Source of the DNA: Sarcophilus harrisii
Taxonomy: Eukaryota
Assembly: GCA_048593225.1 (NCBI GenBank)
Contig: CM109176.1
Span: forward strand, 477,435,429-477,499,428
DNA: 64,000 bases
Direction: 5' to 3'
Positions within the stretch are counted from its first letter, which is position 1. Every line of letters starts with the position of its first letter. Position numbers and translations under genes: made by a program. The notes under the pieces are model-generated. The model was not told where the DNA came from. It saw only the letters and a program-made list of their open reading frames with translations, and did no database searches. This document shows positions 17,063-18,076 of the stretch, one piece after another.

Positions 17063-18076
17063 CTTAGCAAGTGATGGAGTAACATCTTGTACTATGGAAT
17101 TCTTCTCTGCAAATGAGAAAGCTGTAGAGACTATTTCTTTTCTAGTATCTCTGGATGGAGAAAACGGAGGCTGACGGAGCCATCGCAGTTGTTCATCATT
17201 TTTCATTCCAAAAATATGTCCATGATTTGATTCAATGCCGTACATTTTTTTTCTAAGTGATAAGTTCCCATAATCAACATCCGGAGTGGATTCATACCCC
17301 TCCTTAAATACTGAAAGTGACTTCTTCATTATCCCAGGTCTTGGAAACTCAAGTAAATCTAAATGAGGCCTAGGAATAAATCCAGGAGCACCACAAAGAG
17401 GAGGAGGAGGAGGAGGAGGACAAGAAATAAAAGAAGAGCAAGAAAGAGAAGCAGAAAGAGGAGTTGGACAGGAAAGAGAAGAAGAAAAAGGAGACAAAGG
17501 AGGAAGATCAGAATTAGAATAAGGAGCCCCCCAAGCATTACCTCCTTGTTGGACTAAAGGAGGAGGAAAAGGAGAGTTTGCAGAAAGAAAACTAGGAGTA
17601 GAAAGCGTTCTAGCATGTAAGGCAAAGCCTGAACAAGATTGGGAAAAGGAGGAATTAGCCAGAAGACGAGGAGGAAGAGGAGGAGGAGGAGGAGGAGGAG
17701 GAGGAGGAGGAATTGGAGAGGAAAGAGTGAAAGAAGTTTCAGAGTCCCAATCCTGTTTTTTATGTTTATTAAATAAAAATGTCATGTCTGAATCTTTCTT
17801 AGTTAGATCTAAAGCCCTGGCATGGTCATATTGATCAGAAGTAAGAAGCAGCTTTTGAGATGGAACAGAACAGTTTTCCTCCATAGAAGAATACAATTTT
17901 AATTTCTCATCATTTTCTGTGAATAGTCGAATCTCTTTTTCTGGTTTGTAATGGATAATATGTGGTACTGAATGTTTCCTCATAGAAGTAATGTCTGAAA
18001 AAGTATCCCTCGAACTTAACTTAAAAATATCTTTAATATTTTTCAGCTTCATTCTTCTGTGATATTTCTGTTGAAC
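17063..18076 (-). CDS. Large 1014-nt internal coding exon with proline-rich low complexity. It translates VQQKYHRRMKLKNIKDIF...SSPIPPPPPPPPPPPLPPRLL...ISCPPPPPPPLCGAPGF...IVQDVTPSLAK, phase 0 to 0.
   Basis: A 338-codon ORF (ORF track 17036..18052, extended upstream to the acceptor 'atatcacag|GTT'). The donor is 'GCTAAG|gtaaag' at 17063. The end of the exon, 'IVQDVTPSLAK', plus the next exon aligns to the VWA5A C-terminal 'LVQLIYHQNANGSWDLNEDLAKILG'. Confidence 0.75.

Follow-up and report, generated by a model that had tools for sequence, protein, structure and literature searches.

The 64,000-nucleotide (nt) stretch of Sarcophilus harrisii DNA analyzed here (contig CM109176.1 of assembly GCA_048593225.1; hereafter the window) carries on its minus strand part of the gene for PARP4, the vault PARP, and within it a giant coding exon at 17063–18076. 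This exon is very probably the orthologue of PARP4's largest exon (human exon 30), encoding a hypervariable linker in which two runs of CCT codons, translated into proline tracts, are most likely by-products of slippage. The region would thus be annotated as a hypervariable PARP4 exon, the equivalent of human exon 30; an original prediction for this locus had instead proposed a new insertion into a gene resembling VWA5A.

The identity of the gene was determined by comparison with human PARP4. Open reading frame (ORF) fragments encoding VIT and VWA sequences matched residues 713–1095 of the human protein at E = 2e-91 (phmmer; the 1724-residue Protein Data Bank (PDB) chain of 9bw6, 9bw7 and 11jf), and the database matches of the conserved ORF fragments upstream on the same strand bear the names PARP4 or PARP4-like. 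For the remainder of the protein, residues 1096–1724 were taken from the PDB-deposited target line printed by HMMER; a probe that differed from it at one residue served only to fetch that line. A tblastn search of the window with this segment yielded a collinear minus-strand series of matches around the giant exon. It carried the PARP4 match on to human residues 1096–1219, collinear with the VIT and VWA (ITIH-like) region, and showed the conserved exons to be 57–94% identical to human PARP4. A six-exon model running from 29686 to 5443 has ten splice sites, all of them canonical GT-AG, with phases that fit and an in-frame product of 557 residues ending in TAA. This spliced product matched the human domain that interacts with the major vault protein (MVP), termed MINT or MVPID (residues 1568–1724), at E = 3e-60 in phmmer, and in the alignment the residues S1614, K1618, Q1682 and R1689 are identical to those of human PARP4. 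All four are MVP contacts in the cryo-EM structure (PMC12280208). Because both the VIT/VWA and the C-terminal parts match and the four MVP-contact residues are conserved, we concluded that the gene is a PARP4 orthologue and not a VWA5A-type VIT/VWA protein.

This result overturns the assignment of the gene as VWA5A-like, which is contradicted by the two strong PARP4 matches and by the presence of an Arg1689 equivalent. The confusion is understandable, because VWA5A (BCSC-1) shares the ITIH-like VIT and VWA region and an MVPID-like C-terminal helical fold with PARP4, although it has been reported to lack an equivalent of Arg1689 (PMC10450202); for this comparison, VWA5A was represented by that published description and not by an alignment. 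The statement that the flanks of the exon align to VWA5A likewise failed, as the non-repetitive flanks match nothing significantly, human PARP4 included. What the original prediction had right was the giant internal coding exon itself, which is borne out by its frame, its splice signals and the collinear exons on either side.

The stop-free minus-strand frame from 18076 to 17063 comprises 338 codons (1014 nt), or 365 codons when the intronic run-on is included. The exon is in phase 0 at both ends and is bordered by a canonical AG and GT (acceptor ...tatcacAG/GTT and donor AAG/GTAAAG, the slash marking the exon border). Among the stop-free stretches of the window it ranks second in length, after a LINE-1 ORF. 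The 225 codons that lie outside its CT-rich core are open in the frame of the exon only; given the 34% GC of the window, stops should occur about once in 14 codons, and ~0.006 such cases would be expected per window. Upstream, an intron of 11.5 kb separates the giant exon from the preceding exon at 29564–29686 (−), which contributes 41 codons at the end of the ITIH-like region and corresponds to human residues 1184–1219. This preceding exon was matched at E = 7e-6 in tblastn and at a domain independent E-value of 0.058 in phmmer, is collinear with its neighbors, and has the splice sites ttattcAG/ and AAG/GTAAGC in phase 0. The downstream intron (16963–17062), in contrast, measures 100 nt; reading through it meets a stop after 9 codons, and it has the donor GTAAAG and an acceptor made up of a polypyrimidine tract and CAG. 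It is followed by a 102-nt exon at 16861–16962 (−), whose 34 codons correspond to human ~1554–1582 and contain the start of the MVP-interacting domain. The tblastn match of this exon is weak alone (E = 4.2) and collinear, and its last 16 residues lie within the phmmer domain of E = 3e-60, a match that begins at residue 399 of the model and extends through the following exons.

Between these two neighbors, the slot taken up by the giant exon corresponds to human residues ~1223–1553, with 338 residues against 331 in human PARP4; the preceding and giant exons together encode 379 residues, against 372 for human 1182–1553. Because the residue counts match in this way, there is no room for further exons. 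Consistent with this count, no hidden PARP4 exon was found between 18 and 29 kb, where minus-strand stop-free stretches compared with the PDB gave LINE-1 ORF2 only. The amino acid composition of the slot is also shared between the two species: serine accounts for 14% of the residues (16% in human), proline for 13% (12%), leucine for 10% (10%) and phenylalanine for 6% (6%). The composition of the exon correlated with that of the human slot at r = 0.88, compared with 0.42–0.47 for other, neighboring PARP4 segments. A Ser/Pro/Leu/Phe-rich low-complexity core occupies codons 115–228 (17393–17734, minus strand) and comprises 114 residues, of which 32 are proline, 25 serine and 14 leucine and only 3 are charged. 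Its composition correlated with that of human residues 1300–1470 at r = 0.89, and both blocks are nearly uncharged.

The sequence itself was not alignable. Residue alignment of the exon to the human slot was not significant (the global score had a z of 1.4, and 9 of 300 shuffles attained the local score), and HMMER placed the core collinearly on human 1306–1411 with a negative, bias-dominated score. No PARP4 match inside the exon came from phmmer searches of the PDB, whether the query was the exon in full, the 120 residues at its N-terminal end or its C-terminal part. When the giant exon alone was used as query, a word-indexed search of 5.8 billion proteins returned no match at E ≤ 0.001, and an exhaustive HMMER search of 1.84 billion representatives returned six matches, all of them unrelated polyproline or low-complexity proteins, mostly bacterial-looking, and none of them PARP4. 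Both protein libraries evidently hold few vertebrate proteins, which makes these negative results uninformative on lineage specificity. A proline-rich Pfam match to the exon (PRIMA1) was sub-threshold, at 15.6 bits against a cut-off of 38.6, and was rejected as compositional.

One short element near the start of the exon may nevertheless have been kept. A basic cluster, KYHRRMKLKNIK, is encoded by exon codons 4–15 (18032–18067, minus strand). Counted from the preceding exon junction, it lies no more than ~10 residues off the human basic cluster KRKHRKIPFSKRK (residues 1237–1249), of which it is the candidate counterpart. We take the human cluster to be the annotated nuclear localization signal (NLS), and KYHRRMKLKNIK may therefore be a conserved NLS in an exon that otherwise cannot be aligned. 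In the published domain layout, an NLS is placed between the vWA and INT domains (PMC7916137).

Tandem Repeats Finder (TRF) identified two period-3 arrays within the exon, at 17668–17711 (14.7 copies, 95% match, score 81) and at 17398–17420 (7.7 copies, 100% match). In a TRF scan of the window, no trinucleotide array but the former was both strong and clean, and the only other period-3 row in the 64 kb was a degenerate AAT array within an AT-rich tract at 56422–56488; the second CCT array scores under the threshold of that scan. Counting by regular expression showed that the first microsatellite (17669–17710, minus strand) consists of a pure (CCT)11 at 17678–17710, followed by CTT and then (CCT)2. 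It encodes P11-L-P2, which is 13 prolines in 14 residues, and the Arg that comes next completes the sequence PPLPPR. The second microsatellite is a (CCT)7 at 17399–17419 (minus strand), encoding P7 bordered by Cys on one side and Leu-Cys on the other. The corresponding peptides are IPPPPPPPPPPPLPPRLL and CPPPPPPPLC. Both tracts are tandem, in-frame, pure single-codon repeats, the first with one C-to-T interruption. They lie in a coding strand that is 70–92% C+T across the core, and codon usage is skewed accordingly: CCT is used for 35 of 45 prolines, TCT for 27 of 48 serines and CTT for 16 of 34 leucines. No proline run longer than 2 was found in human PARP4 1096–1724.

These data confirm that the proline runs stem from (CCT)n repeats, and they refine several earlier figures. 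The tract given as 13 prolines followed by LPP is real, but its count is P11-L-P2; the second run, given as 8 prolines, is also real and numbers 7. The block described as ~200 Ser/Pro-rich residues is indeed Ser/Pro-rich, but it measures 114 residues. The view of this block as a lineage-specific insertion did not hold, as human PARP4 has a like segment in the same slot. Only the proline homopolymers are absent from human PARP4, the sole orthologue compared, and thus only the (CCT)n microsatellite may be lineage-restricted.

Coding trinucleotide microsatellites and homopolymeric amino acid tracts in disordered regions form a general class, in which slippage is expected to lead to length polymorphism. 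The tracts found here resemble this class in that they are pure and in frame, number 11 and 7 units, and sit within a region of low complexity and weak constraint; they are short compared with repeat expansions of the disease type. A slippage origin is suggested by the combination of pure single-codon arrays, CCT-biased proline codons, a pyrimidine-rich strand and the absence of proline runs from the human protein. The 11 pure CCT units are a plausible site of length polymorphism, and the arrays would make convenient polymorphic markers.

The features of the giant exon agree well with what has been published for PARP4, and the exon is an ordinary instance of that published feature. Daugherty et al. 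(2014, PLoS Genet; PMC4038475) described PARP4's largest exon (human exon 30) as disordered and positively selected; the human exon boundaries used here are those of that study. The exon codes for ~360 amino acids within a single disordered region, is 'highly variable among vertebrates' in both sequence and length, and has a human–rhesus ratio of nonsynonymous to synonymous substitutions (dN/dS) of 1.75, compared with 0.63 for the whole gene. It is under positive selection in bats as well, and it was proposed to be a pathogen-interaction surface shaped by host–virus conflict (PMC4038475). Suskiewicz et al. (2023, NAR; PMC10450202) likewise described an intrinsically disordered segment joining the ITIHL region to the MVPID. 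A region rich in proline or serine goes unmentioned in the 1999 paper on VPARP. Set against human exon 30, the giant exon belongs to the same gene and occupies the same position, between exons matching human 1184–1219 and 1554–1724. It is also a single large exon of similar size, has a Ser/Pro-rich and near-uncharged composition, and carries a basic cluster near its start. Its sequence is extremely diverged, as published. The two differ in that P11-L-PP and P7 are encoded by pure CCT here, whereas human proline runs do not exceed 2, and the positively selected patch of primates (residues 1504–1521) has no recognizable counterpart in the giant exon.

From these observations we propose the following model. 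The exon would encode a basic, NLS-like cluster followed by a long, probably disordered linker. This linker would act as a tether between the C-terminal MINT/MVPID, which would dock on MVP within the vault, and the body of the enzyme, made up of the PARP catalytic part and the ITIH-like VIT/VWA region. Between this species and human, the linker has retained its position, its length (~330–340 residues) and its Ser/Pro-rich, nearly uncharged composition while losing all alignable sequence, a pattern consistent with the published disordered, positively selected interface. Its core is written in a polypyrimidine stretch of CCT, TCT and CTT codons, in which replication slippage of CCT would have produced P11-L-PP and P7. 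The proline runs are most likely tolerated by-products and not a newly inserted functional module. At most, they might form polyproline-II rods, ~4 nm and ~2 nm long as estimated from the rise per residue of that helix, and so make the tether modestly stiffer.

Several points weigh against this reading. Within the CT-rich stretch, more than one frame is almost devoid of stops; the openness of the core alone is therefore no evidence of coding, and the use of the exon is predicted from its ORF, its splice signals and the collinearity of its neighbors. Its homology to the human counterpart is positional and compositional, not alignment-based. With human as the one orthologue compared, the tracts may be specific to the species, to the genus or to a clade. 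The PARP catalytic part of the gene is beyond the window: the first recognizable exon, near 63.3–63.5 kb, corresponds to human ~713, and the N-terminal exons encoding the BRCT-WGR-HD-ART catalytic part would fall past position 64000. Disorder of the giant-exon product is suggested by analogy with the human counterpart, and neither structure prediction nor charge–hydropathy analysis demonstrated it. Single-sequence AlphaFold2 gave a mean pLDDT (predicted local distance difference test score) of 36, with the folded MINT control also below 50; in this low-confidence model, residues 61–334 had no secondary structure, and the only helices placed were those of the MINT part and of the final ~45 exon residues. 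A FoldIndex-type charge–hydropathy index scored the uncharged block as 'folded-like' in both species, including the disordered segment of the human protein, and hence cannot discriminate a block of this kind.

Among the competing explanations, it seems unlikely that the polyproline tracts are selected protein-binding modules, for profilin or for SH3, WW or EVH1 domains, through which PARP4 gained a new partner in this lineage. In view of their sequence, the tracts might bind profilin or domains of the SH3 or WW type: PPLPPR (residues 132–137) fits the class II SH3 pattern PxxPx[KR], RQPPFSP fits the class I pattern [RKY]xxPxxP, the runs of at least six prolines fit a profilin-type ligand pattern, and the proposal that this exon is a positively selected pathogen-interaction surface (PMC4038475) would agree with a binding role. 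However, patterns of such brevity can arise by chance, indeed automatically, beside any proline run, and the scan of the exon found no PPxY and no EVH1 motif. Pure single-codon repeats are the mark of recent slippage and not of a motif under maintenance, no equivalent exists in human PARP4, and a vault-bound protein would reside in the vault lumen, away from cytoskeletal partners (PMC12280208). A related idea, to which we give still less weight, is that the CCT microsatellites serve as an evolvability device in a pathogen-facing exon: slippage would shift the length or stiffness of the rods, or would make and break SH3- or profilin-type ligands, and tract length would be under diversifying selection. 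If tract length were under selection, it would be a small addition to the host–pathogen story of PARP4.

The remaining explanations concern whether the exon and its tracts have been read correctly, and each is less probable again. It is very unlikely that the region is more than one exon, with the polypyrimidine core serving as an internal intron, an exitron or an alternative 3' splice region, such that the proline tracts would be missing from some or all mRNAs. The high pyrimidine content of the core would suit such a role, several AGs after the core, such as that of tcctcctcctttAG/TCC at 17553, resemble 3' splice sites, and CT-rich DNA is open in several frames by composition alone. In a crude scan, however, every internal GT agreed with the consensus at fewer than 7 of 9 positions, and no in-frame donor–acceptor pair at least 70 nt apart was found; one frame is common to both flanks across the core, and the length of the exon agrees with the region encoded by a single exon in human (the slot of 331 residues; ~360 amino acids in PMC4038475). 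An assembly or sequencing artefact in the repeat lengths appears slightly less probable than an internal intron. Trinucleotide arrays are error-prone in assemblies and a single sequence was at hand, but arrays of 33 and 21 nt are well under read length, and they preserve the frame inside an otherwise coherent exon. Least probable of all, and hardly credible, is a ~200-residue Ser/Pro insertion, specific to the lineage and lacking any counterpart in relatives, in a VIT/VWA protein that resembles VWA5A. Such a view could draw on the restriction of the window to the VIT, VWA and C-terminal portions of the gene, on the ITIH-like region and MVPID-like fold of VWA5A, and on the lack of an alignable homologue of the exon in any library searched. 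It is countered by the strength and extent of the PARP4 matches, by which the VWA5A identity was already refuted, by R1689, and by the human slot, which holds a Ser/Pro-rich segment of equal size and composition.

The other exons of PARP4 were mapped along the minus strand in the order expected from the human protein. Three VIT/VWA fragments are given by the limits of their enclosing ORFs or stop-free stretches, which are not exact exon borders: one near 63275–63481 (human 713–768), one at 54470–54700 (human ~856–920) and one at 50373–50561 (human 946–1006). In the ITIH-like region, phmmer placed a fragment corresponding to human 1046–1095 within the ORF at 42735–42932, and tblastn placed exons, with borders given as the limits of the high-scoring segment pairs, at 42431–42514 (human 1096–1123), 38405–38488 (human 1123–1150) and 37476–37571 (human 1150–1181). 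E-values in tblastn for these ITIH-like-region exons, between 37476 and 42932, ranged from 7e-8 to 4e-12. Downstream of the giant exon, the MVP-interacting domain continues in an exon at 15847–15946 (human 1583–1616; tblastn E = 3e-10, 71% identity) and in another at 9876–10008 (human 1616–~1662; phmmer E = 7e-8, tblastn E = 2e-10), with the equivalents of S1614 and K1618 at the junction. The last coding exon, with its TAA, lies at 5443–5644 (human ~1663–1724; tblastn E = 4e-26, 74% identity) and contains the equivalents of Q1682 and R1689.

Elsewhere in the window, several repeats and remnants of mobile elements were observed. LINE-1 ORF2 debris at ~18100–21000 on the minus strand matches human L1 ORF2 structures at E of about 1e-15. 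A 519-residue ORF at 56661–58220 on the plus strand, also LINE-1 ORF2 debris, is the longest open stretch in the window and has no Pfam match; similar short ORF fragments occur at ~700–1200, 33650–33900 and 45400–45930. A PARP4 intron contains the remnant of an endogenous retrovirus pol gene at 34349–35440 on the plus strand, with an RVT_1 fragment bearing YMDD (E = 2.5e-9) and an rve integrase core (E = 1.2e-8). The strongest tandem repeat in the window is an intronic (GA)n/(TC)n microsatellite at 22755–22860 (26.5 copies of GAGA, 96% match, TRF score 170). The intron between the VIT exons contains, at 60613–60709, a (TG/CA)n-type microsatellite of imperfect sequence and, after it, an AG-rich 19-nt repeat. 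Two pure intronic T runs, of 33 nt at 32123–32155 and of 27 nt at 32289–32315, lie ~130 nt apart and may be poly(A) tails left by elements retroposed on the opposite strand.

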